From Rozella allomycis CSF55 (Eukaryota): 64,000 nt of DNA. The stretch spans positions 1-64,000 of the forward strand of contig KE561161.1 of the NCBI GenBank assembly GCA_000442015.1. Direction: 5' to 3'. A program made the position numbers and the translations under genes. Below, one piece after another: positions 21,425-55,455 of this stretch; position 1 is the first letter of the stretch, and each line of letters starts with the position of its first letter. A model generated the notes under the pieces. It did not search any database and was not told the origin of the DNA. It worked only from the letters and a program-made list of their open reading frames with translations.

Positions 21425-23334
21425 TTAAAGTTTATTAAGTTCATTAACCAATCCATCAGTAAAATAATGTAGCTTGGATTCAATAGACATTCGATCTTTG
21501 AGATTGCCAACCATTTCACTGTAATACTTCACTTTTGGTTCCGTGCCAGACGTACGGAAAACAATCCATCCATTTTCAAGCTCAAAGTAAATCATCAATG
21601 ATGGAGAATAGTTTATAATCTTTTTAATTTTATATTCTCCCAAATATTCTTGTTTTTTTGACAGAAAATCAAATATTTGTGTTTTTCTTGAACGATCTTT
21701 GACTATTAAATAACCATTAGACGAAGCAAAGTATCCCAGCCTATTCATAAGAAAGAATTATCTTATACTCTTCATATATTTTGTCTAATTTATCAAAAAC
21801 ACTCAAGCCGGCAAAATGCAATTCACATAGCATCTGAAGGGCAGTTGATAGTGCACTAATCCCATCTTTATCTCTTACAAGATCAAATACCATAAACCCA
21901 ATCGCTTCTTCATATGCAAAAGGTACTCTGTATCCCTCCGATTCCAACTTTAATACTTCATTCCCAATGTATTTAAATCCAGTTAACGTTTCTTCATATC
22001 TATGTTCATTTTTAAGACAAAACGCTTTTAGCATTTTAGAAGAAACTATAGTTGTAACCATTGCAATTTGGCCTAAAAATCACCCGCCACATTAATTATT
22101 ACCAGGGCTGATCCTCTCCCTGTTCCTTAATTTCTCTACACAATAATATGCCAATAATATCCCAATTTGATTTCCGGAAAGAGTTTGCCAGTTGCTGTTT
22201 TTATCTTTGGCAGCTATCGCCAAGCGGTCTGCATCAGGATCATTTGCTAGAATAATCGAAGAATTATGCGATTCAGCAGTTTCTATCGCCAATTTCTTTC
22301 TATTAAATACGCCATGTATCTTACTAAACTTCCCTTTCCCTCCTCTGGATTGGGGTATTTCACTGTAGGAAAATCAGGGTCAGGTAAAACCTTTTAACTT
22401 TAACAAGTAACATTACCTGCTCTTTTACAGGTATTAAATATGGATATTTTATTGCTTTTAAAGCTTTTAAAATGTATTCATAGCCCACTCCATGCATTGC
22501 TGTGTATACTATAGGTAATTGTGGATAGGATTCTATGAAACGATACTTGCTCAGTCTTGAGAAATATTCCTTTGCAATCTGTTCCATTGGATCAACGCAT
22601 ATCGATGACTTTGTATATGCTTCATAATCCCAAGTTTCAGGCTCAAAATTGGAAATAATGGATTTAGCAATATCCTTGTCTGTTGGACTTACGATCTAAG
22701 AATTATCCATCAACCTTAATGGTATACCTGGCACCCATTATTCCAATACACTTTGTATCCATTATCCTCTTTGGGGTTATGAGAGGCCTTTGTTCAAGTA
22801 AAGCAAATAATTACAGTTATCATTATGCCACAAGCTGCTTTTAAAAATGTCACTGAAAATGGCTAACTAAATGAGTGTAAAATCTATTACAACAAAGGGG
22901 GTGGGACATATAGCCTGAAGCAAATATACCTTTACATTGTTTTTCAAAAAGACCGCGGTCGCTAATCTAGCGAAATCCCAAGAATGATGTCTATGGTCAT
23001 GACCAATAACTACTCCTTCACTTGTGATATTTTCCCTTGTTTTTATCAAGTGAGCACAAAGTCCCAAAGACATCAGCAAAAATATCTTACTTGAGTGGCC
23101 TGTATTATAGTTAAATCATTCATTCTATTAAATCCAGCACCCATAGATGCTCTTAATCCAGCAGTTCCAAATTCCAAATTAGTCAATAGTCTATCTTCAA
23201 GCTCGGGTAAATTCTTCTCATCTTTTGACAATAACTTTATTTCATTTAAAGTTATAGGATTCTTGAAAGCATTTATCCTGCAAATTTACTTTATCCAGCT
23301 TTAAATACAATTGCAAACGCTCGTCCAAAGACAT
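21425..23334 (-). CDS. PGM2: Phosphoglucomutase-2 / phosphopentomutase family
   Basis: FGTAGLRA, ITASHNP, YTAMHGVG, ANDPDADRL, FAYEEAIG, FRTSGTEPKVKYY; 9 introns, one of them GT-TG. Confidence 0.95.
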
Positions 23335-23349
23335 CGATAAATTTCGTAA

Positions 23350-24066
23350 ATGGATATTGAAAAGTTGGGAATAAGAAAATTGTCAGAGAAGCCTGTATAT
23401 TTAGCTTCTAAAAGCCCAAGGAGGATTGAACTTTTGCAAAGATTGGCTGTATTACTCATTTATATGCTTAACAAGTAGGGCTTTAATTTGGTTATCAAGC
23501 CATCGTTATTCAAAGAAAATCTTAAACACTCTGATTTCGAAACGCCGAAAGGTTATGTTCTAGCGACATGTGAGGCCAAAGCGAATGAAGTTTTAAATAG
23601 AATAGACGAGGCATTTTCATTACTTATATCTGCAGACACTATAGTTGTAATTGTTTCTATGAATAATTAAAGTCTTTAAATAGAACAATATTTGAAAAAG
23701 CTTCTGATAGAAGCATGGCAAAAACAATGTTACAAAGTCTATCAGGCAAAACTCATCAGGTTTATACAGGTACAACACATAAATCTATTTCAAAAAGCCG
23801 TTACTTTAATGTATTTTGTAGGGGAAGAGTTAAAGAAACATAGCTTTGTTGAAGAATCATCTGTGACATTCAATGTTCTGTCAGATTCAGCAATAGAAGC
23901 ATATTTGGATACTAATGAGTGGCAGGATAAAGCGGGATCATACGCAATCCAAGGAATATCGTCCTTTTTTATTGAGAAAATTAATGGTGACTTTTACAAC
24001 ATAATGGGCTTTCCTTGTTGTAGGTTTTTGAAAGAACTAACATATTTATTTAATGAACAAAAATAA
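23350..24066 (+). CDS. Maf-family nucleoside triphosphate pyrophosphatase
   Basis: LASKSPRR, ISADTIV, LSGKTHQV, DKAGSYAIQG, GDFYNIMGFP. Confidence 0.92.
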
Positions 24067-24067
24067 A

Positions 24068-24838
24068 CTATTTTTTCTCATAAATTCTAAGAAAATGGCG
24101 GGTATTATTAAAGTGTAATTTCCTGTACTGTTCAGGCAGTTCATACCTGAACCACTTTGAATCATATGAAGCGATGACTTTCCATGACTTATCTGCAGCG
24201 AAAAGCATATCTAGCAAGAAATAAGAAGGATAAATCTTTTCTTTAATCTTGATTACAGATACATCGCTTGCGCAGTCAATTACCATTAAAAGAGCGCCCT
24301 TTGCTGAAGCCGATATAATGTGTTTGAATAATTTTATGGTGGAAGCTTTAGATTGGGAAACAAGCTCGTTAAATACAAAGAAAAAAGTTATCAAATCCTT
24401 TGAAATTAAACTTGGTAACACTTCCAGGACATTACTCTGAGTGAAATTGGTCTCTATGTTTTGATCACAGAGTAATGATATTTTATCGAAAATTTCGCTA
24501 TAATTCCCAATGTCTATAACTTGTAAGGAACGCTTGGGATTACTAGAAAAAAAGCTAGCGAATCCAACAACTTCGGAGCCGCATCCTCCTCCAACACTTA
24601 AAATAGAATTTCTGGCTGCAAGATATTCCTTATACTCGTTAAATATATGTACAAACAATAAAGCTCGTGTGGGTATAAAATATACCGCGTATGTTGACAA
24701 AAACGAAGGATCTGAAGTAAAAAGTTCTACGTATTTTCTCTCCTTTAGTAAATATTTGATTTTGGTTAGTTGAGTTTCATCTGAATTCAAAGTATTCCAC
24801 AATTCAAGTGACAATGAGAGTGCTCGATCAAAAATCAT
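24068..24838 (-). CDS. Bmt6-like 25S rRNA uridine-N3 methyltransferase
   Basis: Y+VY+IPTRAL, SVGGGCGSE SAM motif, FFFVFNEL, KWFR; start uncertain. Confidence 0.7.
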   Translation of the reverse strand: MIFDRALSLSLELWNTLNSDETQLTKIKYLLKERKYVELFTSDPSFLSTYAVYFIPTRALLFVHIFNEYKEYLAARNSILSVGGGCGSEVVGFASFFSSNPKRSLQVIDIGNYSEIFDKISLLCDQNIETNFTQSNVLEVLPSLISKDLITFFFVFNELVSQSKASTIKLFKHIISASAKGALLMVIDCASDVSVIKIKEKIYPSYFLLDMLFAADKSWKVIASYDSKWFRYELPEQYRKLHFNNTRHFLRIYEKK

Positions 24839-24925
24839 GAGCCACAAAAAATAATACACATGTTATGATGAATTCAATGTCAGTTAAACAGTTATTGAAT
24901 TTTATTAATCTATTATTACTAGGAT

Positions 24926-26577
24926 TCAAAATAAAAGAAAAATTAAAACAACAAGGAAAATCATCGCCACACCGAATCGAGCTATTCTGCCAAGTTTTGT
25001 GTATTTCTTTATCAATAGTAATCTTTTAAGATTAAGAAATTTGATTACATTATTTGGTCAACGTAGTGAACGATGTTAAGCAAGGTTCTTTTGACTTTAT
25101 TCCTCCCTCTGACTACAACAACATCCTTGACTAGAAAATAAACAAATTGAAAAGTTACATTTTATTTTTTCTTCCAAATTTTGAGATTCTATTAAATCCA
25201 TGCTGACGGATGAAGTCCTTTTTTGGTTTTGATAAAGCAATTTATAGTCATTAACTTCTCTTTGGAGTTGATTGTTTAAAGATTCAAGTTGCGAAATTCG
25301 TTGCAATAAATCCGGGTTTGGGTTAATGAAAGAAGTTTGGTGTTGCGCTGTAGTTTCTAATTGATGTAGTTTTTGTTGTAAATTTATAATTTTTGATCGG
25401 TAGTCCTGATCTAAAACAGCATTGCTTTGTTTTTGCTGAGCAAACTTTTCATTTAATTCTGAAATTTGCTTTTCCAATTCACTCTTTTGGTTTTCCAATG
25501 AAAACAATTTGGAGGACAAATTTTCTGATTGTTTTTTATTTGAAAGAATTAAATTGGCATTTTCATGTTCTGATTTTTGAATTTTTTCATTTAGCAAAAT
25601 AATTTCTGATTCTTTTTCATTCAGCAATATTTTAAGTTTATTCAATTCCTCTTCAACGAATGAAATGTCCTTCTTATCAATTATCACAGATTCAGTTTCA
25701 ATTTCAAGTTGCTTGATCTTTATTTCAAGAGACGATATTTGTGCTTTTTGACTTTCAATCTCCTCATCTTTAACAGACATTTGATTCTTCAAGTCATTAA
25801 TTAAAGATTTCAATTCATTTGCCTCATCTTCCTTTTGTTTGTAGTCTTTAAATGAAAGAATAAAATAGTTTACTGCCTTGTAACTGAGAAGAATTTGTCA
25901 TCCACACCGAAAGGTCTTGGCTCAATGATTTAACTTGATTCTTCAAGTTTTCAATTTCTCCCACTTTAGAGGCACATACGTCTTCAAGTTGATTTAATTT
26001 TTTATTTTCTTCAAAAACTTTCTTCAAACTCTCAAAAAGTTCATTTTTATCATTTGTGCAGGAAACACGTTGTAGCTTTTGAATAAATTCATTATTTTCT
26101 CTGATTTTGTTATTTGCATTCTCCATTTCTTCACTTAATCTTTTCACAGCTTTATCTTTTGATTCCAATCTTTCCTGTAAGTCTCTATTTTCTACGCTTA
26201 TTAATTACCTAAAAGTTGCTTATTCAAAGAATTTATAGTTTCTTCATTATTATATTTGCTCTGGGTATCTTCTGCATTTTCTTTGCTTGTTTCTTTCTAA
26301 ATTGTTGGTAAAAATTACCTTGAAACCTCATACTCAAGTCGTCCTTTTCTCTAGACATTATTTTTACAACTTCTTCGGAATTTTTCAATAAATTCGAAAG
26401 TTTGTTTATTTCTTCTTGCTGCCTGACGTTGCTTTCCTCACACGACAATTTTAGATCTTCATTTTCTTTAGTCAGTGTATCCACTGTTTGTTGCAGCTGC
26501 TGAATTTTGATTTTTGCCTTTAATTTGAACTTCTTCAATTCTTCTGACGGATTAACAGTATCTTCAGGCTGAGACAT
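24926..26577 (-). CDS. Coiled-coil protein with C-terminal TM anchor (golgin-like)
   Basis: E/K/Q-rich heptads over 6 exons, ending ARFGVAMIFLVVLIFLLF*. Confidence 0.65.
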
Positions 26578-26640
26578 TCCAATTTTTCAGAAATCACGCA
26601 AATAAAATTCAAATGAAATTGACCAGTAACGTGTAATTTA

Positions 26641-26838
26641 TTAGAATAGATGGATTTGTTTTGAAACCACTGACCAAGATGCGCCTTTTGCTTGCTGACC
26701 AAGAGAAAGATATGCTCTTGTGTATTCATACGCGTAACTCCTTGATTCGTTCTCAGACCTTCCTTCACTTTTTGCTAGTAGGTATGTTTTGATATATATG
26801 TCATGTGCAAGAATTTTACTTTCAAAGTTATCGCGCAT
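26641..26838 (-). CDS. Small hypothetical protein
   Basis: 65-aa ATG-started ORF filling the intergenic gap; no recognisable motif. Confidence 0.3.
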   Translation of the reverse strand: MRDNFESKILAHDIYIKTYLLAKSEGRSENESRSYAYEYTRAYLSLGQQAKGASWSVVSKQIHLF

Positions 26839-26866
26839 GAAACACAGGTTCCCCTGAAAAACAAAA

Positions 26867-27794
26867 TTAGATGAAATCTTTATTTATAGATACTTTTATC
26901 ATGGAATGGAAATCTATCATAGATACCACACAATGTTACCACTTCTGCAAATCGGACATTTGTGAGATTGTGACCTCAATTGCTCTGCACAGTCCCCACA
27001 TAAACATAGATGCCTACATGGCAAGACAATTACCGATTTTTCTTCTGACATGCATATTATGCATTCTCGTGTAGTTCCTAAAGAATCTGTTGACGTATTT
27101 GTAGTTGTGTTCATGTCATTATCATAATTTGGACAACCATAAATTTCAAGCAACAGGTATTTTTTCCTCAATTAGATGAATAAATTAAGATACCCATAAT
27201 CATATATTTCAGTATTTTTAATCTGTGAAATGTATTTGTCTTGCTCATGAAGATCAATTTGTAGCTCGTAACACACCGCCTTACAGCTACTCTCGTTTTC
27301 TAAATTGATTAAAGCGCTGAAATTAGTTGGGAGCTCCATTTTGTTGAATAATAATTTGACATCATGGGGTCTAATATTTGCTGCGCATTCTATTTGGTCT
27401 GAATCAATTTTAGAATCACTTAATTCATAATGATAAGTTAAAGTTACTTGTGAATAATTGTGGCTTTTACGGAACAATATGATGAACTCTTGATTTTAAA
27501 CTCAAATGTCGGATTTTCTTTGGCATGAAATTGTAGACTACCTCTTATTAGACAAAAATCAAGAATGATTGGTTGGCAATAACTGTGCTGCATCGATATA
27601 TTAATGTCTTTGGACATTGGAACTTTATCAAAAAAAGAGGATGGTGTTCCATTGGCCAATGTTACTACTAATGGTGTATTTGGTGTCTCTGGAACATTTG
27701 AAGAGTATACTTGGGTATTATCGGTGTTGTTAAGTTCTACAGTTTCACTGGCGCTACTTAGACGTCGAATAAAACGATTGAATTGATTAAACAT
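26867..27794 (-). CDS. MGRN1/RNF157/LOG2-like RING-HC E3 ligase
   Basis: YLLLEIYG followed by ECIICM..VLPCRHLCLCGDCAEQLR..KCPICR. Confidence 0.85.
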
Positions 27795-27898
27795 GGTGCT
27801 TAGAAACGGATGTTAATAAATCCTGATTCTGATCAAACGACAACAAGTGCCCATTTTTAAAATATTTATGTATATTATTTATAATTTATAGATTGTAA

Positions 27899-28630
<732 letters not shown>

Positions 28631-28693
28631 CGAAATGTGGCTTAACACTGCATGGGGCTTTTATTAGTAATGAAGACATAATCAATTGAAAAT

Positions 28694-29686
28694 TCATGAA
28701 AACATGCATTTATTAATTCCAAAAACCTTGAGGGTTCCTGAATTTGGATATCTTGAAATTTTCCCTGTCACACTGGTTGAAATAAAGTAGTATTCCGTGC
28801 AATTAGTTATTTTAAATGAAGAGGCTAAGATTTTAGCTCCGAATACACCTTTTCTTTGCGATCCACTTATAAGATTTAAAATGTATTTTTTGTTGTCCAC
28901 TATCAAAGTCGCTCCCTGCTTTAACATGCAAAGAAAAACTACCTTTAGATTTTCTTTAGAAAAATATACAAGATAGAACCATAAGTTGTTGGCGTTAATA
29001 ATGGATTCCTTTGGAGACATATGCGTGCCTACAATGATGGGTGAACCATATTCTCTTGGGATGTAGCCACCAAAATCCTTTAAATTAACAATAAAATATG
29101 CTCGTACTTGGCATAAGTATTTTCCATTAACACTAATTCCAACTTCAGTAAATGAGTCCTCTGTCATTGCTGAGCATGTGTGTCTTTGAGAAAGGAGAAA
29201 GTCCTCTCGATTAGACTTTAAAAATATTATTTACTATTGCATTAGCTGGAGACTCAAAGCTATCGTACAAATTTTCTCCGATGATTGCTGGACGATAGAA
29301 GTGCCAAATTCGGTCAGACCACTTACATGAACCGAATGGCTTACATTTTCCTGGGCAAGTGTCATGTTGAAAACACCTGAGTTGTGGTGATTTCTAAAAT
29401 TTTTACTTGTCATTCATGTTGGTGCATTGAAACTTCGATGATTTGGTTAGCCCTGATGACCATGTCAATGGATCAATAGAGACGGCATCTTTGACACATG
29501 AATTAGCTTCTAAAGAGATTGAGAATCTTTTCCCATATCCCGAAGGATCTTGAAAACATTTATCCTTTAGTAGTTACCAATTCTTACAGCGTTCGAGAGG
29601 AACATGAACGTTCGTTCATAATAGGATAAAGAGGTAATATTTTGTGCGTTCAAAATATTAAGGAACAATACCAAGAAATATTTCAT
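28694..29686 (-). CDS. Secreted CAP/SCP-domain protein (bacterial-type)
   Basis: Spliced by hand: signal peptide, ERTFMFLSNAVRIDP, PLTWSSGL, CFQHDTC, DRI, GENL, H...M....FTEVGI. Confidence 0.7.
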
Positions 29687-29740
29687 TGGAAACGGATGTA
29701 AACAAATACGATCAGATTAATTTTTATTGCTCTCACTCTG

Positions 29741-31627
29741 CTAGTACTCTTCTTTCGCAAAAAGTGGAAAAGGTTGATTTTTGTCATGTATAAAACCGAT
29801 ATGTGCTATTCTATCTCCAGACATTGCAACTGGGTTAGAGCTTTTGCCTATTATTATTGATTTGCAAGGAGCGTAATATTCATCCACAATGTTTCCAAAT
29901 ATATCACGTATAGTGGCAATTAATTCACCTTTATCTACAAAAACGCTAACTTTAGGGTAAACCTCCAGAACACCACCTGTTCTTGTATACATCCAATATC
30001 CATGCGAGCAAATTATTGGTTGATGGTTTAAATCTTTGCCAGGATGACTTCTCATACCAAAGTAATGAAGAATGTTTAAAAGTCCAGAATAGCACCATGA
30101 CGTATAGGTTTTTTGTATTGTTTGAGGATTCCCAATTTCAACAGTGATGACCTTCACTCCTCTCGTTGAAGCAGCTTCCCTCAATGTTCCATCTTGGCCG
30201 TTGTTGTGAAGAATGATTTGCGGGCACATTAATTTGGCCATCTTAAAAAAAGCTAAACTATTATTTACATGTGAGACCGCTTCATCGTGTAGGTTGGCTC
30301 GAACGTAAAAAGAATTCATCCTACCAAATGATGCAGTATGTAGATCAATAAGCACATTTAAGTGCGAAACAATCTTAGTCATTAAATGATATGCGTAAAT
30401 TTGGGAAGGCATCCCCATTTCATTCCCTGGAAACTCCCTATTTAAATCTCTCTTATCAATAAATTCTCTGGTATACGCAAGATATCCTTCATTAAAACAA
30501 AATAGGTTCAATTACCAGGGACATTGACACATGGTATAGCGACAATTGTTCCATTTAAATTTTCACAATCTATTTCCGCCATAAGACGATGAATGCAAAA
30601 TACACCATTTAATTCATTGCCATGGACAGCTGCCGTCAATCCCAAAGTTGGTCTATTCATTTGAATTATCGATTCATACCCGTTGTTGATGCCCCGTGCT
30701 ACAATAAGTGGTACTCTAATCCATTCAGATAGTCCTTGCTTCATCAAATTCAGCCAAGCGGTGCTAACAACCCCAATTTTGAAGTCTTCCAAATTAAAAT
30801 CTTCGATAACAATAGGTTTAGAATACTGGTGAAAGTTAAGTTTTCAGAATTACGTTAGCTGTTTTAAAGATATCTCTTTTGCCACCAATTAAGTCCAATA
30901 TATCGTTATCAGCATTAGGCTGCAATAAGTTTTCCTTTTCAAAATCGTTCATGATACTTTTGCCGTCTAATTTATTCCTGTATTCATCTTTCGGTATTTC
31001 GTTCATGTCAATAATCAGTAATGTATTATCATCTCCGTTTTGACAAATAGGTTTTATATTTAAGCAATGAAAACCAATCCCTTCACTTGTTAATGAATGA
31101 TTTATGACTAAAGTATCACCTTTGGATAGTAAATAAGATGTATTCTCTTCAAGTTCAACGCTAATACGGCCTTCAATACAATGTATTAAAGAAACATAAC
31201 CAAAAAGATTCCGAGAAAGAGGCGCATAGGTCTGTGGCAAATGTTCAATTTGTGCGGAGATTCTAAATTTACTTTTATCATAGCTAAGGTTTAGACCCAA
31301 CACGGGACTTTCATTTTTGTCGACATTATGAAGTTCATATTTGTACCCGAAATTATATATCTTCAATGGCTTCAGATTTAGATTAATATTTCCCTCCACT
31401 TGAGCGTGCAGTTTTGATTTTCTGGTCAACAAGACATATATACTAGTGATTGTACTGTTTTCATTAAAACTGGCGTAATGTCCTTGAATTTCTATTAGTG
31501 AAAAACACCAATTATTGTTTAAGTTATTTTTTCTTGCTTCTGTTTCTCCTGATGCTAATATTCTAGTCAAGACTTCACCGTTTCTATTTTCAATGGATTC
31601 ACTTAGCTTTATAATTTTAGTACTCAT
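29741..31627 (-). CDS. HutD/Ves-like domain fused to succinylglutamate desuccinylase/aspartoacylase (M14) domain
   Basis: HGNELNG, DLNREFPG, IDLHT, VEIG; the N-terminal ORF is joined in frame by intron 30826-30853. Confidence 0.85.
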
Positions 31628-31721
31628 CTTTTAAATGGTATTTCTTTAGAAGCCACTATCAGATATTGAGTATATAAGTCAACATGACATTTGGAAATTA
31701 TTTTTATTGCATTAATGATTA

Positions 31722-33017: not shown

Positions 33018-33045
33018 TTCAGTTGAATAGACTTTAGAGATTTTA

Positions 33046-34420: not shown

Positions 34421-34728
34421 AAACTTCTGAATTTCTGTAAGCAGATTGTGATTGAATAGATTTCCAAAATTGGCTCATATCAACCGCGCTAATAAATAGC
34501 TATTTAAAATTAAAATCTATATGTCTATTTTAAAAAAGAGTTGAATCAGTCCAAATTAAGTATTTTTATATTATTCTATTTTATGCAATTATCGTTTACA
34601 TATTGTTACAACCGGTAACTAAATGAATGAAAATCTTAAATAAGAAATAGTGATCTAATTATAAGATTTCTTTGTTGATTACTTTATTGGCATCAAAAAT
34701 TTTTTGGCATCAAGGGAAATTTCAAAGT

Positions 34729-37132: not shown

Positions 37133-37174
37133 TTTTCAAATATATTCGTGAAAAAAATATTTATGAAAATGAAT

Positions 37175-38171
37175 TTATTGTTCCTGTGCATTCATTTCAG
37201 CATGATTTATAGATTTCGCGGTTGCCTTAGTAGCTTCAATTTTGTTTTTCTTTAAAACATCCTTTTCCGCCGATTTTGATGAGTTGGGATCTAAAGACGC
37301 AGCTTTCATGATACAGTTTGTATTATATGTAGTATAATATCCAACACAAACCATTTGAGTCATGTACAGAGTTTGAGAAACCTCATTACTAGAAGTTACA
37401 GCGATGATAATTCCAGATATGATAAAATNCGTTACAGCGATGATTATTCCAGATATGATAAAATACAATGCCGCGGTCATTGAACTTTGCAAAAACTTTT
37501 TCTGCATCTTTAACCACCTATTTCCTTTGTATTTGCGTAATTTGATGTACACNAGTTACAGCGATGATAATTCCAGATATGATAAAATACAATGCCGCGG
37601 TCATTGAGCTTTGCAAAAACTTCTTTTGCATCTTTAACCACCTATTTCCTTTGTATTTGCGTAATTTGATGTACACTAAAATATTAAAAACAACGATCCC
37701 AGTTTCAATAACTGCAAGCCCAGCAGAGTCATAGTTTGTACCTTCGTAATGTATCATGCAATCAGGTAATATCACTGAAGTTGCTGCATAACCAATAACC
37801 ATGGCTCCGTAGAATACATTAATGAATATGATTATAGATTTAACAGCCCTGCCACTTGTTGGATAAGCATATTTCATTAGTGCATACAATTTTACATATT
37901 GAAGTGCATAATATCCAATAAAAGCTAAATACCAAATTATCACACCGTTTAAATACTTGACACCGCCGCAGCCCATATCTATACCATTTAAGATGAGTAT
38001 TTTGATGGTAAAATGTACCAACACAAAAATCAAAACGCCTATTTGAGCCTTTCGTCCGGGAGATTTGTCTTTTTGAATATAGAGGAATGATTCAATAAGG
38101 AATTTTATAGTTAACACTAAATATAGAGGAGCCAAAGTACGCAAGCTATCATTAAAGGCAAGGCCAGCCAT
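37175..38171 (-). CDS. Orphan 7TM-like membrane protein
   Basis: About 7 hydrophobic segments once the N-flanked duplications at 37429 and 37553 are collapsed; intronless. Confidence 0.65.
37395..37675. repeat. Tandem duplications around N37429 and N37553 (probable allelic artefact)
   Basis: About 120-nt copies differing at a few synonymous positions. Confidence 0.85.
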
Positions 38172-38297: not shown

Positions 38298-39622
38298 ATG
38301 AAATCGTTATTGTTTCTTACCCTTTTTAATTCCTTGGCTCAGAGTAGAATTTATTTCTCTGAAACATTTTCTGATAATGATGGATGGCAAAACCGTTGGA
38401 TTCAATCGACCAATGTAGATACTTATGGAAAATTCGAGAGGAAGTAATGTTATTTTAATACAGTTATCAAGCAATGGGCTTTTCCATGGTGATTATGAAG
38501 AGGCATATGGTTTAAGAACCTCTCAAGATGCAAAATTTTATGCGATAGCTTCTAAATTCAATCAAACCTTTGACAACAAGGACAAAGATCTTGTTGTTCA
38601 ATTTACTGTAAAGCATGAGCAAAACATTGATTGTGGTGGAGGTTACGCTAAGATTCTTTCATCTAAAGAAAATTTGTCAAAATTCAGCGGGGACACGACG
38701 TATTTCTTAATGTTTGGTAATGAACTCAATTGAATAAGAACAGGGCCGGATATTTGCGGAAGTTCTAGGAAAGTCCATGTGATAATAACGTACAAGGGAG
38801 AAAATAAGTTGATAAAACACGAAATAAATGCCCCTTCAGATGAATTAACTCATCAATACACCTTGGTTATTAAACCCAATCAAGTAAGAAGGTTTCTTTG
38901 CGATAATTGACTTTTAAAGTTTTGATTGATGGTGAAATCGTCCAAGAAGGGAATTTTCTGGAAAATTGGGATTTTCTCCCACCAAAGCAAATCCCAGATC
39001 CTGAAAAGAAGAAGCCATCGAATTGGGCGGACGAAAAAGAAATAATTGTAATTTGTTTTCATATATTTGAAAGGATCCTAATGACAAAAAGCCAGAAGGA
39101 TGGGACGATATACCACAAACAATTCAAGACGTGAATGCCGTTAAGCCGGAAGATTGGGATGAAGAATTAGATGTAATGAATTTCTTCTATATTGATTAGG
39201 GTGAATGGGAGCCACCTCAAATTCCGAACCCAGAATATAAAGGAGAATGGCAACCGCGACGAATCCCTAACCCTGATTACAAGGGTCCATGGGTTCAGCC
39301 AATGATTGATAATCCTGATTTTATTCCAGATGAGGAAATATATAGATTTAGTGACATGGGTGCTATTGGTTTGGATCTTTGGCAAGTCAAAAGCGGGTCC
39401 ATATTTGATAATTTTATCGTTACCGACAGTATTGAAGAGGCTCATGAATTCGGCAAAAACCACTGGGAAAAATACAAAAATGCCGAGAAAAAGGCTAAAG
39501 AGCAGCTAGATGAAGAAAATAGGAAAAAGCAAGCAGAATCGGCTCCTCAACAAGACGCATCTGAAGCAGAAGTCGGTGAAGAAATCGGCGAAGATATTAT
39601 TGATGAACATGAAGAACTTTAA
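38298..39622 (+). CDS. CALR: Calreticulin
   Basis: Signal peptide, TSQDAKFY, KHEQNIDCGGGY, MFGPDICG, P-domain repeats, GLDLWQVKSGSIFDN, C-terminal HEEL, no TM segment. Confidence 0.95.
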
Positions 39623-40324: not shown

Positions 40325-40419
40325 TGAAATATACATTGTTTAATAAATTACAATTTGCCTGGGAAAAATTATTAATATTTGTTAATTAAATATAGTTTGT
40401 TTTATAACTAACGTATTAA

Positions 40420-41022
40420 TTAATAATGATCATTGAATAGCTGCATTGTTTTCATTAAAAGCGGTCGAATTTCATTCAATTCGTGTCTAGTGATATTCGC
40501 TAACAGCAAAATTATGAATTGTATTAATTACTATAATTTCCTTGTTGGCGTGTAAATCTTGAAAACCTTTTAAAGTTTTTCTTTGTCGCACTTCTCGTAT
40601 CGCTTGAACCAACCGCTTCACAATTTCAACCGAGGGAATAGTGTCTGCACAAGTCTCTAGAAGCAATCTAGATATTTCAAAAAAGTGTTGATGTAAATTT
40701 GTATATTCTTCGGTGTTCTTTTCATTGTCCAGAATTCGCTGAAGATATTCTTGCAAAACGAGTTGAAAAAGTGAGTACCTATAGTTAAAAACTCTGGGGT
40801 GACTATATTTGCTTTCAAGGCTCGTTTCAGTTCAAGAGCAAACCAGAGTGGCACTTTGACGATGGTGTTTGCGGTAAAGGGGCCCAAAGTGACCTATTTT
40901 GGCATTAATTGTTTGGCTACTGAAAATAATTTTTTTCTTGGCGCGTTGAATAGCGGGAATATTGATATCATTTCATCCTTGGCAAAGAATTCCAGTTCTG
41001 GCGGCGAAAAAGTAGACGCCAT
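40420..41022 (-). CDS. PSF2: GINS subunit Psf2
   Basis: FSPPELEFFA, GPF..VPLWFAL, IREVRQRK, ELNEIRP; the last intron is GT-TG. Confidence 0.92.
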
Positions 41023-41060
41023 TTTTCCTGCGCCACTAGGGAAAGATTTAGTTTAAAGTG

Positions 41061-44682: not shown

Positions 44683-44738
44683 AAGATTAAATAAAAAGGA
44701 TTAAAAAATATTAAGATTAAATGACTAAATATTCTCTT

Positions 44739-46290: not shown

Positions 46291-46342
46291 GAAATTTGCC
46301 AAACTGGACTAGGAAAATTCAGCCAGGGTCTCCGTATTTGTA

Positions 46343-46875
46343 ATGGTAATAACACAACCAGCTCTATATTTAGCCATTAGCAGAAGAACAAGTGAGTGAC
46401 TATAAAGAAGCCTTTTGTTTATTTGATCGTTCTGGACAAGGTCACATTGAAGCTCATCAACTTGGCGATCTTTTGAGATCACTCGGATACAACCCCACTC
46501 AAGCTCAAGTCAAGGAAATGATAAACAAAATTAATAATCAACCACTATCCTTTGACAGCTTTCTACGATTTGTAGAAGGAGATTTGCAAACCTTTCAGTT
46601 TCCTAATCCAACCCTAGAAGAATTGGTTCAAGGTAAACTTATTTTAAAACATATATAGGATTTCAAGTTTTTGACAAGGAAGGGAATGGTTTTATTTCAG
46701 TTGGCGAATTAAGATACGGTAATTAGAATCAAGCCAAATATATTTAGTGCTAACTTCATTGGGTGAAAAATTAACTGATGAAGAAGTGGATGAAATCCTT
46801 AAACAAACAGACGTTGTTGGGAAAGAAGGTTTTGTTCAATATGAGGAGTTTATAAAGAAGATATTAAATGGATAA
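46343..46875 (+). CDS. Myosin essential light chain (Cdc4/Mlc1-like EF-hand)
   Basis: YKEAFCLFD, LGDLLRSLGYNPT, GFQVFDKEGNG, ELRYVLTSLGEKL. Confidence 0.9.
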
Positions 46876-46970
46876 ATAAATCGAAAATTCTATTTAATTG
46901 ATTTTAAAAATAAAATATAGACAACAGTTACTGCAATCATAGACTGTTCATTGTGCAGGGGTTGAAAGAA

Positions 46971-47817
46971 ATGGATCGTTTGATGAACAAAGTCGTTTTT
47001 ATTACTGGCGCTTCTTCAGGTATCGGACAAGCATGTGCTCATTTATTTGCATCTTTCGGATCGAAATTAGTAAATTAACGTTTACGGAGTTTTAGATTAT
47101 CACGGCAAGGAGAGAAGACAAACTTAATGAATTAAAACTAAGCTTAATTCAAAAATATCCCGCTGCTGAAATCCAAGTTGCAAGAATGGACGTATCAAAA
47201 CCTGATAGTGTCTTACAGCTCTTTAAAAGCAATGACTGGGTGATTGACGTCTTGATTAATAACGCTGGTTTAGCACTAGGCACAGAACATGTAAGTGACA
47301 TCAATTTTGAAGATGTGGACACAGTCATGGATACCAACGTGAAAGGTGTGGATTAAAGATAGCATATACTTAAGGGCTACTTTATGTTACTAATCAAGCT
47401 CTTCAAAATATGAAAAAGCATGACAGAGGACATATCATTAACATCGGCTCAGTGGCGGGCACACAAGCATATCCAGGTGGATCGATTTATTGTGCATCCA
47501 AACACGCCGTTGATTCAATTACTAAATCGTTGCGTATGGAACTTGTTGATACGCAAATACGAGTAACAAGCATATCACCTGGTAGATCGTTAAAGTCTAT
47601 TTAAAAAGGACTCGTTGAAACCGATTTTTCCAATGTAAGGTTTAAAGGAGATTCAGATAAAGCCAAAAATGTATATAAAGGTATAAAAGCATTAAATGCT
47701 GAAGATGTTGCTGAGGCTGTTATATTCGCTGCTTCACGCCCATCGCACGTCCAAGTTGCAGATATATTGATATTTCCAACCAATCAAGCATCAGCATATC
47801 ATGTGCATAGACAATAA
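46971..47817 (+). CDS. SDR oxidoreductase (YdfG/YMR226C-like)
   Basis: ITGASSGIG, NNAGLALG, YCASK, PGLVETDFSNVRF. Confidence 0.92.
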
Positions 47818-47867
47818 ATTATTTGAATACCTTTGAATATTTTACATTTCGTTCAGCCACTGGCGTT

Positions 47868-49305
47868 ATGACACGTCAATCAATAATCCGATTTGCTAAA
47901 CTTGCAGTTTTAATAGCAAGCGTGTTATCTCTTTATTTTTCAATTTCATGCATATATAGGAAGGAAGATTTTTATGCTGCTTCTGTCTCCTTCAAACGGA
48001 ATAAGTTAGCTTTCACGGTAAAGAATATGGATTCACATTAACTGTGCCTAATACTGACAATAGAAGGAGTATTATTTGGTTTTATGTATTCTCTTATCAA
48101 GATAATATTTGGATCTATAAGGTTAGTTGAAGAGGAGGTAAAAGTATACCTTGGAAATGATAGCACATATTTGAAGAGCTATCTGCTAGCATATTTCAGG
48201 GATTATTTGCGTTGACGATGTTTAGAAATTCTGTGAATAGTAGCGATTTCAATATTTTACTATGCGGTTTGTTTTGCTGGTCATGCTTCCATTGGATATA
48301 TCAACATAGATCTGACCTAATTGTCCAGGTACCGAATCTAGGCGTTACCTACCATGTAAAAATGGCTTCGGCAACTCTTTTGATAACATTTATCGATTTA
48401 AGTATCTTATTGTATTGTTTTGATCATTTGACAGAACATGGTGTTGATCTACACTTTTATTTTCTGTATAACATTTCTATTTTATTTGTTGGATTCATGT
48501 TTAATTTGACAAAATACGTTTTAAATCTTCTTGAGATGTTCAAACCAAATGAGTGGCATGACAAATCGCTTTACTTGTTCTATGCTGAGTTGGTGCAAGA
48601 TTTACTTAAAGTGATTGTTCTATGCTCCTACTTTTATATGGTAACCATCTCGTTCGGCCTTCCTCTCTATTTGATTCGTGATTGCATTTTCAGTTTTGCC
48701 AGTTTGATAAAAAAGATCAAACAATTGCTTAATTTCCATAAAACAATGAGAGATCTTCAAAATAGGTATTGATAATAATTCTATATTTTGAAAGGTACCC
48801 TGACGCAACCCCCGATGAATTGGCATCAGGCGACCGGGTTTGTATTATTTGCAGGGAAAACATGGACACAGCTAAAAGGTTATCCTGTGGCCATTTATTT
48901 CATTTTAATTGCTTAAGAAGATGGATTGAAAGACACAACGTTTGTCCCACATGCAGACAGCCTTTAGACTCTAGACCCGCTAATACAAATACTAATGCCA
49001 ACGAAAATAACGATATTCCAAATGCACCTAATAATACAAATGAAGAATTATTAAGAGCATTGCAAGAACACGAGAGAATCAGAGAGGTCCTAGACAACTT
49101 AAGAAATCGCCCCATTGGTGAAAATAACCAACGCGAAAGAATTCAAGCAAATTTAAACAATTTGATCGACGAAGAAGAACAAACTCGGCGTTATCTTGTT
49201 GCCCAAATTCAATACTTGAAATTCCTGAGTAACAGAGCGAATTCCATGATTCAAGACTATCATAGAATACAAGATGAGATTTTAAATAACCAAAATAATC
49301 AATAA
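47868..49305 (+). CDS. HRD1: ERAD E3 ligase Hrd1/synoviolin-like
   Basis: Multi-TM N-terminus, FGLPLYLIRD, YPDAT..DRVCIICRE..CGHLFH..C..W..CPTCR; the first intron is GT-TG. Confidence 0.88.
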
Positions 49306-49390
49306 ATTTCATCCAACTTTTGATCACTTATTTTAAAATTAAGAAAAGTAATTAATGAATTTACTTCTGCCTGACCTCTTGTGGCTAAGC

Positions 49391-51851
49391 ATGACTCAAG
49401 AAAAACCGATCTGGTTTGCACCAAAAAACGAAAAAGAACCAAGTGGTCTTCAAGTGAAAAATTCATTCAAGAATGAAAAAGTATGAAAAACATTTCTAGC
49501 TTATAGGTTCCTTTTGTTCCTCAACAGGGAAAATTGATAAAGTGGTATTCCTGTGGCCCAACTGTTTATGATGCAGCACATATGGGGCATGCTAGGACTT
49601 ATATTACCTTTGACATTATAAGAAGAATTTTAGAAGACTATTTTGGATATGATATATATTATGTTATGAATATAACAGATATTGATGACAAGGTTGGAAT
49701 GATTTGAATTTAACAAAGATTATTATAAGAGCACGTCAAAAATATTTGTTTGATGAATATTTAAAGAAAAACGTTACTTTGGAGGAATTAAAATCGGATA
49801 TCATGGAAGCCGCTAAATTTGTTGCAGAAAAGTATCTGAATTTAAAAGATTTAAAACAAAATGAATTAATTGAAAAAATATCTGCTATTATTTCCGAAGA
49901 TCCTAAAGTTTTGATGCATAAAAAGTCAATTCTTGCAGGCCTAACATCAAAAAGTCAAACCCCTGTCGAAATAGCTGAAGCCGCTAAAGACATTTTAACT
50001 TACTGGCTAGATGACAAAATGGGTGCATCTGTCACTGACATTAAAATATTTAGAGATCTTTCTGTCCACTGGGAAAAAGAATTCATGAAAGACATGGAAT
50101 TGTTAAATGTAAATAACTTGTTTAAAGTAGAAAAGGTTTTGCCATCTGATGTGTTAACACGTGTGAGTGAATATGTACCTGAAATTGTCGATTTTGTTCA
50201 AAAAGTGATTGACCATGGATTTGCGTAATTGATTTAATAATTTTCAATGAGTTACGAAGCTGATGGATCTGTTTATTTTGATACTCAAGCCTTTGATAAA
50301 GATCCCAACCATTCTTACTGCAAACTGAAGCCTAGTGCCAAAGGCAACGTAAAATTGATGGAGGAAGGTGAAGGATCATTGTCTTCACACACCTCGAGTA
50401 AAAAATCTCCAGCTGATTTCGCCCTTTGGAAAAAATCCAAGCCTGGCGAACCAGCATGGAACTCTCCTTGGAGCCAGGGTAGGCCAGGTTGGCATGTTGA
50501 ATGCTCAGCAATGGCTGGTGATGTTCTCGGCTCATGCCTGGACATTCATTCCGGTGGTATAGATTTATGCTTTCCCCATCATGATAACGAACTTGCTCAA
50601 TCTGAAGTAATTTGAATATGCCTAATTGACCAGGGTTTCTTTAACAATAAGCAATGGGTGAACTATTTCCTTCATGCGGGTCATTTGCACATTGAGGGAC
50701 AAAAAATGTCTAAATCACTAAAAAATTTTATTACTATAAGGGAAGCTTTGGCAAAATACAGCAGTCGCCAGATTAGACTGTTGTTCTTGCTTCATAGCTG
50801 GTCTGATGTTTTGGATTATAAAGAAAGCTCAATGAAAGAGGCTATTAATGTTGAGCAAACATTATTTAATTTCTTCTCTAATGTTCAAACAATCATTAGA
50901 GAGGTTTCTCTGTTGGATATTTCACAAAACAACGATCATGACTTTAGAAAGAAAGAAAAAGATTTGGTTGAATTGTAAAATATGATTATTTAATTAAAAG
51001 TTTATTGGATAGACAAAGTGACATTCACGAAGCGCTTTGTGACTCATTTAATACACCACTTGTTATGAGAGCGTTACTTGACATTATTTCTCAATGCAAT
51101 GTTTACATGAAAGAAACTCCAAAGCCTTCTGTTTATCCATTAAAAAAAAGTGCTGATTTTGTTACAAGAATTTGCAAAGTAAACAATAAAGTTAAACTAA
51201 AAAAAGATATTTGGGNTTAAATTAAAAAAGATATTTGGAGTGATTGAGACAAGAGGAACTATTGGATTTCCTGTCCAAACGTCTTCTTCCTCTCTTGAAG
51301 AAAGTCTAATTCCTTATCTTAATACTTTGGCTGATTATCGCGATAAGATTAGAGACTTGGCAATCAATAATGCAGATTCCAAACAATACTTGATATTGAG
51401 CGATAAATTAAGAGACGAAGATCTTTTAAATCTTGGAGTTCTTTTGGAAGACAGAGATGGCTCAACCAAAGTAAAATTGGTGGACAAGGATTTTGTCGTC
51501 AAAATGAGGCAAGAGAAAAAGCAAGTAGACAATTTTATCTTTTCATGATTTAGCGTGATGAAGAAAGAGAGAGAAATAAAGCTCTGGTGGCCGCTGAAAA
51601 AGAAAGAAAAAAGCAAGAAAAAATTGAAAAGGCAAAAATAAGTCCTAATGAAATGTTTAAAATTGGTGATTATAAAGACTTATTTTCAAAATTCGATGAA
51701 ACGGTAAAATTATTCACTTTTTTGTTAGAAGGGATTTCCAACCCATGACAACAAGGGTGAAGAACTAGCAAAATCAAAAACGAAAAAATTGAGAAAAGAA
51801 TTCGACGCGCAATTAAAACTTCATGATCAATACATAAATGGCACCCTTTAA
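49391..51851 (+). CDS. CARS1: Cysteinyl-tRNA synthetase
   Basis: [38 protein letters not shown]; 9 introns. Confidence 0.97.
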
Positions 51852-51879
51852 TTTCGCACTTACAATAAATGCACTTTAT

Positions 51880-52787
51880 TTATGTTAATGTTGCTGTAGC
51901 ACCTATCCTTGCTTTCACTTGTGATGGCCCAGCATGGCTACTTAGTTGGAAGCTTCTCTTTCTCAATGTTTCCACCAATCCTCTTTCTGTGATTATTAAT
52001 AATTGATAAATAGCACATGTTGAAAGACACACAGTCAATCCGTGTTGACTAAGCAAACGATGAAAAATGGCCAATATCATGACAATGTTCACTATCAATA
52101 TCATAAACGAGCGAATGACAGAACTTTTGATTACAGCAACTTGAATCGGCGCTCCCACGTTCGATAGGTATTGTTTCGCATCATTCAGGTATTGTCGTAA
52201 TGATTGAATTGTCACAGTGGTTACAATGATATCAACAAGCATATCAATAACTACAAATGTGGTAAGAACATCAACATCCCACCCATACATACAAACACCA
52301 TCCATCATCTTGGCACCAGGAAAGACCAAATTCATAACACTGACAATTCCCCTAACGGCCACCGTAAAATAAGAAAACCACATAACATATTTGTTTTTAA
52401 AGCTTAAAAGTATCGCCCGGTANCGACGATTCCTCTAACCGCCACCGTAAAATAGGAAAACCACATAACATATTTGTTTTTAAAGCTTAAAAGTATCGCC
52501 CGGTAAAGGAGCAGATAGTCTATTCCCATCATCCCCATGCTTTCCAAGAAATTGGCTATTCTAACCGTTGTATCGCAATCAAATGGATATACGCCTTGAA
52601 ACACAACTATGACTAATAGAGCCCATGAAGCAAACGAAAATGAAGAAACTACTTTGGTGTATGTATCAAGTGTCCTTGATTTTTGAGCAAGAACAGTGAA
52701 CAAAGAATATACAAACAGAATTAAACTTACAGTCAACAAAAACATAGCTGACATCAAGATTTGCACAACAGAAATCGGATATGTCAT
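51880..52787 (-). CDS. Orphan 7TM-like membrane protein
   Basis: About 7 hydrophobic segments after collapsing the duplication at N52423; intronless. Confidence 0.65.
52344..52505. repeat. Tandem duplication around N52423 (probable allelic artefact)
   Basis: About 80-nt copies with several SNPs. Confidence 0.85.
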
Positions 52788-52835
52788 GGTTGTAGCGAGG
52801 TCGGAGAATAAAAATTATAAATAGGTGGAAAAGAT

Positions 52836-52907
52836 TTCCGCATCGGGGAATCGAACCCCGGCCTTTGCGGTGAAAGCGCAAAATCCTAGCCACTAGACCA
52901 ATGCGGA
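52836..52907 (-). tRNA. tRNA-Glu(UUC)
   Basis: TCCGCAT/ATGCGGA acceptor stem, TTGCG-CTTTCAC-CGCAA anticodon arm, GGTTCGATTCC T-arm. Confidence 0.95.
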
Positions 52908-52909
52908 TG

Positions 52910-54032
52910 TTATGTGTTATTTATTAAATATTTCAATCTTTGAAGGGCGTAAGAGTAATAGTCAAAAGTCATTCCTTTTTGTTTGTTAGCCAGCAAAAAA
53001 CCCCATATGCACCAAAATAGATGAGACAAAGGCACAAAACTCATAACTATCAAATCGAATTGTTCAAGTTGCACGTTTTCTTTTTCTTCAAAGTATGCCC
53101 GGTAAAAGTTGTATCGTTCTTCAAGAGAAGGAAACAAATTTTGATGGAGAATGTGGGGATTTTCACTGTCATAGTTGGCCATCCATTCACAAAAGTGGTT
53201 TGCTATATCATATTCCCTTTGTGCAATTAACGAATATTCAAAGTCGATTAGCATCAAGTTTTCATCCTCATCACAAAGAATGTTCCCATATTGAAGCTAT
53301 TCGTTAAATATAAATTAGCCATTACATCACCATGAATAAGACAGGTTTGTTCATCTTCATAGGAGTTTTCCAGTTTCATCTTTAGCTCTTTCAATTTATT
53401 ATCAATGATTTCTATGTGATTTTGTTCAAGATTCTGATTTGAAAGTAGTAGCGTGTACCATTTGTCCAGTTGACTCCAGATTTGAGTGCTTTTCTCCTTT
53501 ACCTCAACACAATGTAATATGCGCAACTGCTTTGCTATTTTCTTTGAAATACCTGGCTTGCGCATATTTGATGGCGTCAAAGGTGCTACTCCTTGAATGT
53601 ACTCCTCCACACGACCGAAATCAAAAGCTGCCAGAATGCGGGGCATCAACCCTTTTGCAGAAATTTTAGAGGCCAATCTCACTTCTCGACTTCTAGATAT
53701 TAAATGAGTGGTGCCGCTGCCGTAAAATCTAATTAACAAGGGTGAACTATTGCTGAAATGGCAAACAAATACAATGTTGCTCAATGCTGCATCTAGACGC
53801 TCCACAGAGATGATTCCAGCTGACTGATACTTTGGAACATGATTAATTATATTTTGAATTTCATGAATTGTTGGTATATGTTCGATACCTGGACTTATCT
53901 TACATTGACATCACTTTGTTACTCCATAATAATCGGAGTGGTTATATCTTTCTCAGTCACATCATATACATCGGCATTGGCTATAGCATCGGTTAATTTT
54001 TCTTTGCTATCATAAAATAATGGTATAGTCAT
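52910..54032 (-). CDS. Choline/ethanolamine kinase
   Basis: LLIRFYG, GRVEEYI, HGDLQYGNIL, IDFEYS, DIANHFCEW, SHLFWCIW. Confidence 0.93.
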
Positions 54033-54142
54033 GTTTTGACGATTGAAGCTTATTTTTGAAGCCTAATTAATGAGACTCGCTTTTGATTGAATCAAGACAT
54101 GTAATGGTTATCTTTATTAAAAAGTCAAGATAATAATTTATT

Positions 54143-54295
54143 TAGACTTTCCGTTGGTCTAGTGGCTAACCATGATGCTTACGGACGTCTAGGTGCATGG
54201 TTCGATCCCCATCCATGTTTCCGAATTTTCTGGGGTTTTCAGGTTGAGGCAAGGTTCGACTCCTTGGTGATTTTGACGATGTGGATCCCTCATCC
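54143..54295 (+). ncRNA. tRNA-Glu-related Pol III-type structured element (ncRNA, SINE or tRNA relic)
   Basis: A box TGGTCTAGTGG, two B boxes (54199, 54253), several hairpins, no complete cloverleaf. Confidence 0.5.
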
Positions 54296-54511
54296 TTAAT
54301 AAATACGATTATTCAAATAACTGTATATATTTAAAATATAAAAAAAAAAGATTGTTCTTTAAAACTTCCAGCGGAAAGGAATGAACCATGAGGACATCTT
54401 GACATTGAAATTCACGTCAAAAATAAACTCGCAGAAACGCAAAAAAATAATATTTATGTGATTCATCTATAATTAATAATGTTATAATAACATAAATGTA
54501 CCCCTTCTTAT

Positions 54512-55455
54512 TTATTGACTAGGCTGTATATTCGATTTCGGTTTTCTGGGAATAGGTGGTGCGTATTGATATCCCATTGATGGATTTGCCATTGATGAAT
54601 TTGCATTTATAGCCATATTTGGAAACTGCATCGAATTAGGATGAATGTTGCCTATGGCAGGATTACTGACAAACCCTTGATTACTAGGAATATATTGTTG
54701 ATATGGGATGTGCTGATTCTGCAACTGTGAAGGGGGTGGTTGAGCTGTATAGGGTTGAATCGGTAAGTTTAAGGTAGTTTGATTTTCTAAAGGCATATCT
54801 TTCAAAGGAGCAGATTCAGCTGCCGTTAAATTTTTATCGATAACTTCTGTTTGTTCGATTTCAGGAATAAATTTTTCTATTCATATTGCACAAATTACAT
54901 ACTTATANCAGAACTTACATACTTATATCTTCGGAGCTTAATGGGTGGATGGTATTTCCTAGATTTTTCGGTGGTTCTTTTTCCTCTTGTCCTGACAAAG
55001 ATTGAATGTTTGATAACTCACGAATGAAGTAATCAGCCAAAAATCGTATTTTTTCTAATGAGGGAATTAGGGTGTTAATTGATTGTTGGTCTTGCAAGTC
55101 AGATTTACTTGAATCTGTTGAGTAAATATATAATGTTTACCTTTCACGATTATATTTAATTTGTTCATAGTTAACAGTGCATGCTGTACGTCGTTGTCGT
55201 CTGTCAATAGAATTAAATCGCCATCACTAAAAAAGAGGGCTCAGATATTACCTTCATCTATATAATTTAACTGGTAATTTTCTGGATTATCAGATAAATC
55301 TCTTTTGAATAAACGTTGCATAATGAAGCAAAGTTCATTGTAGGTCTATTTTGTCTGAAATTAGTGGTTACCAAATCCTTATTACATAAAGAGACACGCC
55401 TAAATGTGGAGCCAAATCGTGCTTTGATAGTTACCATACAATCTCCTCCCTGCAT
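54512..55455 (-). CDS. TFG: TFG-like protein (PB1 + coiled coil + P/Q-rich tail)
   Basis: Spliced IKARFGSTFRRVSLCNKDLTYNELCFIMQRLF...YIDEDGDLI matches the TFG PB1 domain as I recall it; one GT-TG intron. Confidence 0.8.

Follow-up and report, generated by a model that had tools for sequence, protein, structure and literature searches.

Candidate GT-TG introns of modal length in five conserved genes of Rozella allomycis CSF55

The first 64,000 nucleotides (nt) of contig KE561161.1 (assembly GCA_000442015.1) of Rozella allomycis CSF55, hereafter referred to as the window, have a G+C content of 32-36% and carry protein genes, with standard stop codons in those that were read, among them PGM2, calreticulin, PSF2 (GINS), a synoviolin-like HRD1 and a TFG-like gene encoding a PB1 protein. 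Each of these five genes is interrupted by a short segment that begins with GTAA and ends with TG, and all five segments are probably spliceosomal introns with TG instead of AG at the 3' splice site. The putative introns and the exons next to them are the following.

23065..23090, minus strand: putative TG intron of PGM2, 26 nt, GTAAG...TTTG, placed by homologues and by the gene finder
23091..23261, minus strand: PGM2 exon upstream of this intron, encoding ...GTAGLRASMGAGFNRMNDLTIIQATQ, absent from the deposited protein, covering positions 3-27 of the PGM_PMM_I profile
22891..23064, minus strand: PGM2 exon downstream of this intron, GLCAHLIK...PTPFV, covering PGM_PMM_I positions 38-82 and 100% identical to residues 4-61 of the deposited protein P0013
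38884..38909, plus strand: putative TG intron of calreticulin, 26 nt, GTAAG...AATTG, placed by homologues, Pfam and the gene finder
38910..39047, plus strand: calreticulin exon after this intron, the first 26 codons of which (TFKVLIDGEIVQEGNFLENWDFLPPK) are skipped by the deposited model
40504..40531, minus strand: putative TG intron of PSF2 (GINS), 28 nt, GTAAT...GCTG
40423..40503, minus strand: last exon of PSF2, 27 codons (LANITRHELNEIRPLLMKTMQLFNDHY), a stop-terminated open frame reached only via the TG or a frame-equivalent acceptor
48018..48044, plus strand: putative TG intron of HRD1 (synoviolin-like), 27 nt, GTAAAG...AACTG, with an in-frame stop inside
55225..55251, minus strand: putative TG intron of the TFG-like PB1 protein gene, 27 nt, GTAAT...TTTTTTAGTG, with the TG 2 nt beyond a TAG, chosen by the gene finder

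In PGM2, calreticulin, PSF2, HRD1 and the TFG-like gene, respectively, the segments measure 26, 26, 28, 27 and 27 nt and open with GTAAGA, GTAAGA, GTAATT, GTAAAG and GTAATA. Excision of each segment fuses two open frames; without splicing, each of the five reading frames runs into a stop or is shifted. An earlier note on this DNA, made from the sequence by eye, had located the five segments and claimed that their removal restores the conserved protein. All five were found again at the same coordinates and strands, and each removal joins open frames; restoration of the conserved protein is borne out by homologues for calreticulin (89/89) and PGM2 (79/95), whereas for PSF2, HRD1 and TFG it is a matter of frame and of domain or length continuity only.

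For calreticulin, as for PGM2, the predicted exact length of the intron is strongly supported by homologous sequences. The upstream calreticulin exon (38746-38883) is 100% identical to the deposited Rozella allomycis CSF55 protein and reaches as far as position 174 of the Pfam Calreticulin profile, the downstream exon taking over at position 175. Junction variants differing in intron length (L) were scored against 89 homologues, comprising 80 open reading frames (ORFs) on metagenome contigs and nine proteins. The variant with L = 26 was top-scoring in 89 out of 89 cases and was the sole variant to give gapless alignments (22/89), with a mean of 109.3 bits compared to 104.7 for L = 23, 104.1 for L = 29 and 67.9 for L = 104. 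The last of these corresponds to the deposited model EPZ32318.1 (P0001), which uses a 104-nt intron from the GT at 38884 to the AG at 38987 and thereby loses 26 residues that all inspected homologues have. The metagenomic homologues originate from a scan with the deposited calreticulin that returned 80 loci on contigs of 1.2-3.2 kilobases, with near full-length matches at 47-56% identity. These loci are read as intron-less, mRNA-like sequence of other eukaryotes, and no close relative of Rozella was found among the 80.

For PGM2, 149 homologues were obtained from a representative search, and 95 of them span the junction. Here, the best variant was L = 26 for 79 homologues, L = 23 for 8, L = 20 for 7 and L = 29 for a single one. 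The sequence is free of any AG from intron position 6 to L = 55, so that the first AG is met 29 nt past the TG. The deposited PGM2 (P0013) opens with MSLGLCAHL, its ATG being located inside the intron, and the upstream exons (about 70 residues in our own model) are lost from it; the region affected, intron included, is 23065-23334 on the minus strand. For this MSLGLC... protein there are two accessions, EPZ32308.1 and RKP21036.1, on two contigs, and its Leu codon TTG consists of the last three bases of the intron, closing with the TG acceptor. Since an A instead of the T would turn this codon into a TAG stop, the T is present in both PGM2 records. RKP21036.1 presumably stems from a second, independent R. 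allomycis assembly.

In the remaining three genes, evidence comes from the frames and domains on either side of the junction. The upstream exon of PSF2 aligns to residues 72-128 of GINS PSF2 chains of 180-185 residues (e.g., query 2-58 with a 180-residue chain, E = 1.5e-5), and residues 27-91 of its 100-codon frame match positions 4-64 only of the 102 positions in the Sld5 profile. The approximately 29 Sld5 positions left unmatched agree in length with the 27-codon last exon. This last exon alone gave no match in a structure search or in Pfam; it may resemble the C-terminus of PSF2, which is an essential replication factor in other eukaryotes. In HRD1, the exon at 48164-48763 (200 residues, starting HIFEEL) aligns to human synoviolin from residue 76 onwards (E = 1.9e-16), and joining via the TG places 81 residues ahead of it, encoded by a hydrophobic first exon (47868-48017, 50 amino acids) and the exon at 48045-48137 (31 amino acids). 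If the TG join is not made, the first usable ATG gives just 18 residues before the HIFEEL exon. From its first residue on, the downstream exon of the TFG-like gene corresponds to positions 51-73 of the Pfam PB1 profile (E = 0.01), and the TG junction yields the product ...YIDE/DGDLILLTDDNDV (slash, junction), to which L = 24 or L = 30 would add or remove one residue; this stretch probably represents the acidic OPCA motif of PB1 domains. No homologues of the HRD1 and PSF2 exons were found in a search among longer proteins, PDB searches with the short exons returned no match or a marginal one, and Pfam at E values up to 10 gave no match for the short TFG, PSF2 and HRD1 exons.

These five segments have to be seen against the ordinary introns of the window, for which a Viterbi gene finder was used whose codon log-odds were derived from ORFs with 200 or more codons and which includes GT donors and a length term. 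It was substituted for a listing of ORF junctions, first tried as window-wide control, in which antisense and shadow ORFs together with many length options produced noise. Already in a plain scan, GT...AG segments linking long open frames peaked at 26-29 nt. A first pass of the gene finder gave 141 introns, with 32, 26, 20 and 25 of them measuring 26, 27, 28 and 29 nt, respectively, while the refined AG-only model gave 127 introns, with corresponding counts of 34, 27, 21 and 24 (106/127 at 26-29 nt). Lengths of 25 and 32 nt are rare in the refined model (2/127 each), and six introns exceed 32 nt; longer ones in this model, either genuine long introns or stand-ins for further junctions that went unrecognised, include 28327-28397 (71 nt), 37518-37590 (73 nt), 26854-26893 (40 nt) and 54877-54922 (46 nt), all on the minus strand. 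The 130 introns of 24-31 nt that were profiled start with GT, mostly followed by A at +3 (113/130) and +4 (85/130). At the acceptor, AG is the only signal: positions -10 to -3 are nearly flat, and -3 is occupied by A in 53, T in 47, C in 20 and G in 10 introns. Introns of the window are composed of 74% A+T (T 35.5%, G 17%, C 9%), and neither a branch signal nor a pyrimidine signal is visible in them. Among 119 AG introns of 24-31 nt, 30 skip another AG that ends 2-10 nt upstream (in three of them only 2 nt away), from which it follows that use of the first AG in a scan is not the rule in the window; a further AG 2-10 nt downstream of the one used is found in 34 of the 119.

The five putative TG introns fit this class in their GT start, in the A at +3 and +4 and in the length mode, but not in the AG end. 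The earlier note had counted them as 5 of roughly 130 introns, and our own models, with 127-129 introns, agree with this; TG introns would amount to about 4% of the introns in the window (5 of about 132). A 27-nt, stop-free GT...AG intron, GTATGTATATTTTTAATTTTAAATTAG, in a gene for a Rho-family GTPase (Cdc42/Rac-like; 27899-28060, minus strand) was left as coding by the gene finder. Since it was overlooked, the number of about 130 introns is a floor, and since stop-free introns with a length divisible by three are invisible to frame-based detection, more of them, including TG-ended ones, may exist.

In order to judge whether an AG might serve each of the five donors, every AG from L = 12 to L = 130 was listed. 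All AGs at L = 13-50 lead to a frameshift and a stop within at most 13 codons. Distant in-frame AGs are available at L = 104, 125 and 128 in calreticulin, L = 91 and 124 in PSF2, L = 84, 117 and 120 in HRD1 and L = 51 and 111 in TFG, all of which delete conserved residues, and TFG has one more in-frame AG at L = 12, below every modelled intron length in the window. Hence, the assertion that every nearby AG gives a frameshift or stop is correct for L = 13-50 and has to be amended for the in-frame AGs farther off and for L = 12 in TFG. The AG nearest to the TG is located at +10 in calreticulin, +4 in PSF2, +19 in HRD1, -2 in TFG and +29 in PGM2, i.e., within 28 nt in four of the five genes. By our own arithmetic, with an AG frequency of about 0.06, chance alone would place an AG within this distance about 80% of the time. 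The two closest are the TAG 2 nt before the TG in TFG (L = 25), which gives a stop after four codons, and the TTAG 4 nt past the TG in PSF2 (L = 32), which gives a frameshift and a stop after seven codons.

Specificity for TG was assessed by rerunning the gene finder with all 15 non-AG acceptor dinucleotides permitted at the same penalty. With this penalty set to 9, 8, 7, 6 and 5 nats, TG was the only non-AG acceptor picked, in one, two, three, three and three introns, respectively, namely those of PGM2, calreticulin and TFG; at 4 nats, two TA introns joined the picked set. When single dinucleotides were permitted one at a time, TG brought a gain of 16.7 at a penalty of 3 nats (TA 8.0, CT 6.0) and of 10.7 at 5 nats (CT 3.6, TA 1.9), the gains of CT and TA resulting mostly from the PGM2, calreticulin and TFG junctions at lengths 3 nt off. 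Within frame-compatible lengths of 23-31 nt, TG solves all five junctions, as compared to two each for CT, AA and TA and one each for GA and GC. Based on dinucleotide frequencies, the chance of a TG being available at all five junctions is about 1.9e-4, or about 1.2e-2 when summed over all non-AG dinucleotides. At the level of DNA, the case made earlier for TG acceptors thus holds, with TG alone solving all five junctions and an unbiased model picking only TG at 5-9 nats.

Apart from its protein genes, the window contains three tRNA genes located between them, and Rfam at gathering threshold gave no match in the window besides these three.

18595-18675, minus strand: tRNA-Ser (TGA)
52836-52907, minus strand: tRNA-Glu (TTC)
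57698-57771, plus strand: tRNA-Ile (AAT)

Single isolated N positions occur at 1867, 37429, 37553, 51216, 52423, 54908, 60725 and 61014, none of them at one of the five TG acceptors; they may stem from ambiguous consensus calls or from masking. One metatranscriptome bearing the same species label, which covers next to none of the window, gave 21 partial, short pieces, 12 of them less than 90% alike, with no joints at the sites in question; the eight pieces displayed measure 37-54 nt.

Several known systems resemble the Rozella introns in one respect or another. Short AT-rich BOC1 introns of Micromonas have, in the passages of Verhelst et al. (2013, PMC3879977) dealing with them, no discernible branch motif, and 34 of them possess TG or CG acceptors, most of which are validated by expressed sequence tags; the same passages describe GT-TG ends for the introner families IE-B and IE-D. 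BOC1 introns and those of Rozella are alike in being short, AT-rich, mostly GT-AG and devoid of a discernible branch motif, with a minority carrying TG (in Micromonas also CG) as their own, in Rozella putative, 3' site. Micromonas, however, is a green alga, and its TG and CG cases either occupy a distinct chromosome region of low G+C or belong to introner families, which are repeated, whereas those of Rozella are unique sequences in ordinary housekeeping genes, involve TG only and are known from DNA alone. The view expressed in the earlier note that TG acceptors are mainly alternative tandem sites of vertebrates is incomplete in light of the Micromonas acceptors (PMC3879977). In human, a 2007 study (PMC2374985) verified TG acceptors in 36 genes, in each case as an alternative to an AG no more than 28 nt away. 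About 0.01% of candidate motifs have their TG used, and where a mutation changes AG to TG, splicing does not take place at the new TG (PMC2374985). Human TG acceptors and the Rozella five have in common the GT start, the TG end, a U2-type 5' site and TG as the favoured non-AG acceptor. In Rozella, by contrast, about 4% of introns would have TG as their sole productive acceptor.

Concerning intron size, the ultra-short introns of dicyemids and myxobolid myxozoans, along with which ciliates and microsporidia are cited, have medians of about 22-27 nt (Hadjez et al. 2026, PMC13644364). Like the introns of Rozella, those of dicyemids and myxobolids offer only GTa as 5' signal and only AG as 3' signal, with no clear pyrimidine tract (PMC13644364). 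The main text of that study describes no non-AG acceptors, and Rozella is not among its organisms with introns below 30 nt. For Rozella itself, two introns of about 30 nt without conserved motifs appear in the S23 gene, in the part of Whelan et al. (2018, PMC6349667) that treats this gene, and a 2026 study acknowledges, in the section concerned, unpublished Rozella RNA sequencing data for gene-model curation (PMC13393502). No report of non-AG acceptors in Rozella was found in the literature searched, a scope outside of which supplements and the 2013 genome paper fell. Hence, while TG acceptors in short AT-rich introns are already known from Micromonas, the Rozella case is apparently unreported.

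Some further candidates were rejected. The identity of the calreticulin exon to the Rozella protein excludes a ciliate, a dicyemid or a myxozoan as source of the DNA. U12-type introns share with the Rozella five a tolerance of non-AG 3' ends but differ in the 5' site, for which the U12-type consensus is RTATCCTT-like; the five GTAA ends do not fit (A/G)TATCCTT. Eliminated DNA as in Paramecium was discarded in view of segments that lack TA...TA ends and of an organism that is not a ciliate, and frameshifting or readthrough in view of segments having intron starts and modal intron lengths.

In the reading we consider probable, the five segments are genuine U2-type introns of very small size, with the cut made at a TG sited at the optimal length, and as such they would be ordinary U2-type spliceosomal introns of Rozella allomycis except for the base before the last G. 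Alternatively, the TG might act as a minor or alternative acceptor beside an AG, as in human TG-AG tandems, giving a mix of productive and unproductive mRNA in which TG is not constitutive. This would be in line with the AG found within 28 nt at four of the five sites (with PGM2 at 29) and with human TG sites being exclusively alternative under a 28-nt limit in the sections cited (PMC2374985), but such an AG is what chance provides at some 80% of sites, PGM2 offers zero AGs between intron position 6 and L = 55, and, as every AG at L = 13-50 entails a frameshift and an early stop, a functional product would come from the TG alone; we therefore regard it as rather unlikely. A pure distance ruler that requires the final G alone, or no fixed dinucleotide at all, would explain TG as the commonest non-AG outcome and would leave some boundaries 3 nt off. 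The very narrow length distribution and the 30 of 119 AG introns that skip an upstream AG are compatible with such a ruler, and so are the two frame-compatible TG options in each of PSF2 and TFG; moreover, with T at 35.5% of intron bases against 9% C and 17% G, a TG:CG:GG ratio of 5:0:0 is not significant. On the other hand, the dinucleotide is clearly read, given that 127 of about 132 introns end in AG, lengths 3 nt either way are worse for nearly all homologues of calreticulin and PGM2, and, with penalties of at least 5 nats, dinucleotides other than AG and TG were not required anywhere in the window, which makes a ruler of this pure kind distinctly unlikely in our judgement.

It is also conceivable that splicing occurs canonically at AG, as deposited, or that translation begins at downstream starts, so that shortened proteins result and the conserved frames following the TG would be relics that are decaying in this reductive parasite. 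The deposited models were built this way, calreticulin taking the AG at L = 104 and PGM2 starting inside the intron, and our own AG-only model likewise arrived at L = 104 for calreticulin and L = 51 for TFG. However, the skipped segments are intact, stop-free and homologue-like, as is evident from the mean bits for calreticulin (67.9 at L = 104 vs 109.3 at L = 26, over the 89 homologues), the N-terminal exons of PGM2 match the start of the PGM_PMM_I profile, and PSF2 belongs to the established essential replication factors of other eukaryotes. Relics would, in addition, require the same single lesion in five genes, always at the modal intron length, and we deem them very unlikely. Finally, the T might be an error of sequencing, assembly or consensus at sites where the genome truly has AG. 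While the window does include eight single N positions, and assembly errors in some genomes of the clade are mentioned in the relevant part of the curation study (PMC13393502), five identical A-to-T errors would be needed at acceptors among about 130 introns, with none elsewhere at acceptors. None of the five acceptor positions is an N, and the MSLGLC... start of PGM2 with its T-containing Leu codon is found in two accessions on two contigs, of which the second presumably comes from an independent assembly. Error is thus extremely improbable, in agreement with the earlier argument that five separate AG-to-TG errors are not to be expected.

Certain points nevertheless weigh against TG introns as preferred here. 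They are known in this organism from DNA sequence alone, and that the mRNA is actually cut at TG, constitutively or not, how efficiently this happens and that a distance ruler is at work are what we infer. The TG introns of PSF2 and HRD1 were never picked by the gene finder at penalties down to 3 nats; the exons that they rescue comprise few codons (27) or have a weak coding signal. For PSF2, HRD1 and TFG, the proposed 3' boundary follows from continuity of frame, domain or length, with which an intron 3 nt shorter or longer remains compatible, and in TFG it leans partly on the presumed acidic motif of PB1 rather than on an alignment across the junction. Canonical AGs at -2 in TFG and at +4 in PSF2 could win in vivo and would then give truncated products. 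Five cases, among which no CG or GG was seen, cannot separate a rule for TG from one for any non-A base followed by G. In human, TG does not occur as sole acceptor, and mutation of AG to TG activates other AGs instead of leading to splicing at the TG (PMC2374985), and the gene-model curation study of the clade reports, in the part concerned, sequencing or assembly errors in some genomes (PMC13393502).

Assuming that the five are indeed TG introns, the 3' cut would be placed mainly by distance, in a narrow window after the 5' site or the branch. Within this distance window, AG would be strongly preferred, and TG would become usable at the optimal length when no in-frame AG is available; about 4% of the introns in the window appear to be fixed with TG. 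The earlier suggestion that intron length compensates for a putative relaxed recognition of AG through U2AF1/Prp8 gains, as regards length, indirect support, as the TGs are sited at the modal 26-28 nt and the rival AGs (L = 25 in TFG, L = 32 in PSF2) at rare lengths. Beyond the window, a molecular ruler combined with relaxed early recognition of AG, which would leave several hundred introns across the genome (about 4%), including those of essential genes, with a fixed TG as the only productive acceptor, is put forward tentatively, at somewhat less than even confidence. If this extended proposal were true, the public annotation would be wrong for a comparable number of genes, and within the fungal/microsporidian lineage Rozella would be without precedent and would offer a natural setting in which to study how the 3' site is chosen in the second step of splicing.

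Both deposited models that were inspected lose conserved sequence, 26 amino acids in calreticulin and the N-terminal exons in PGM2. Should the TG introns be real, public R. allomycis proteins would be systematically damaged wherever such an intron occurs, which would affect comparative studies that use Rozella as sister of Microsporidia. Even if the junctions were not real, five mis-annotated or decaying housekeeping genes would still have been flagged. With real junctions, the range of TG sites acting as sole acceptors, described in a green alga, would be widened to include the fungal branch of the tree. TG acceptors would also be tied to introns shortened to an extreme, a link relevant to the way in which a minimal intron is measured and cut.

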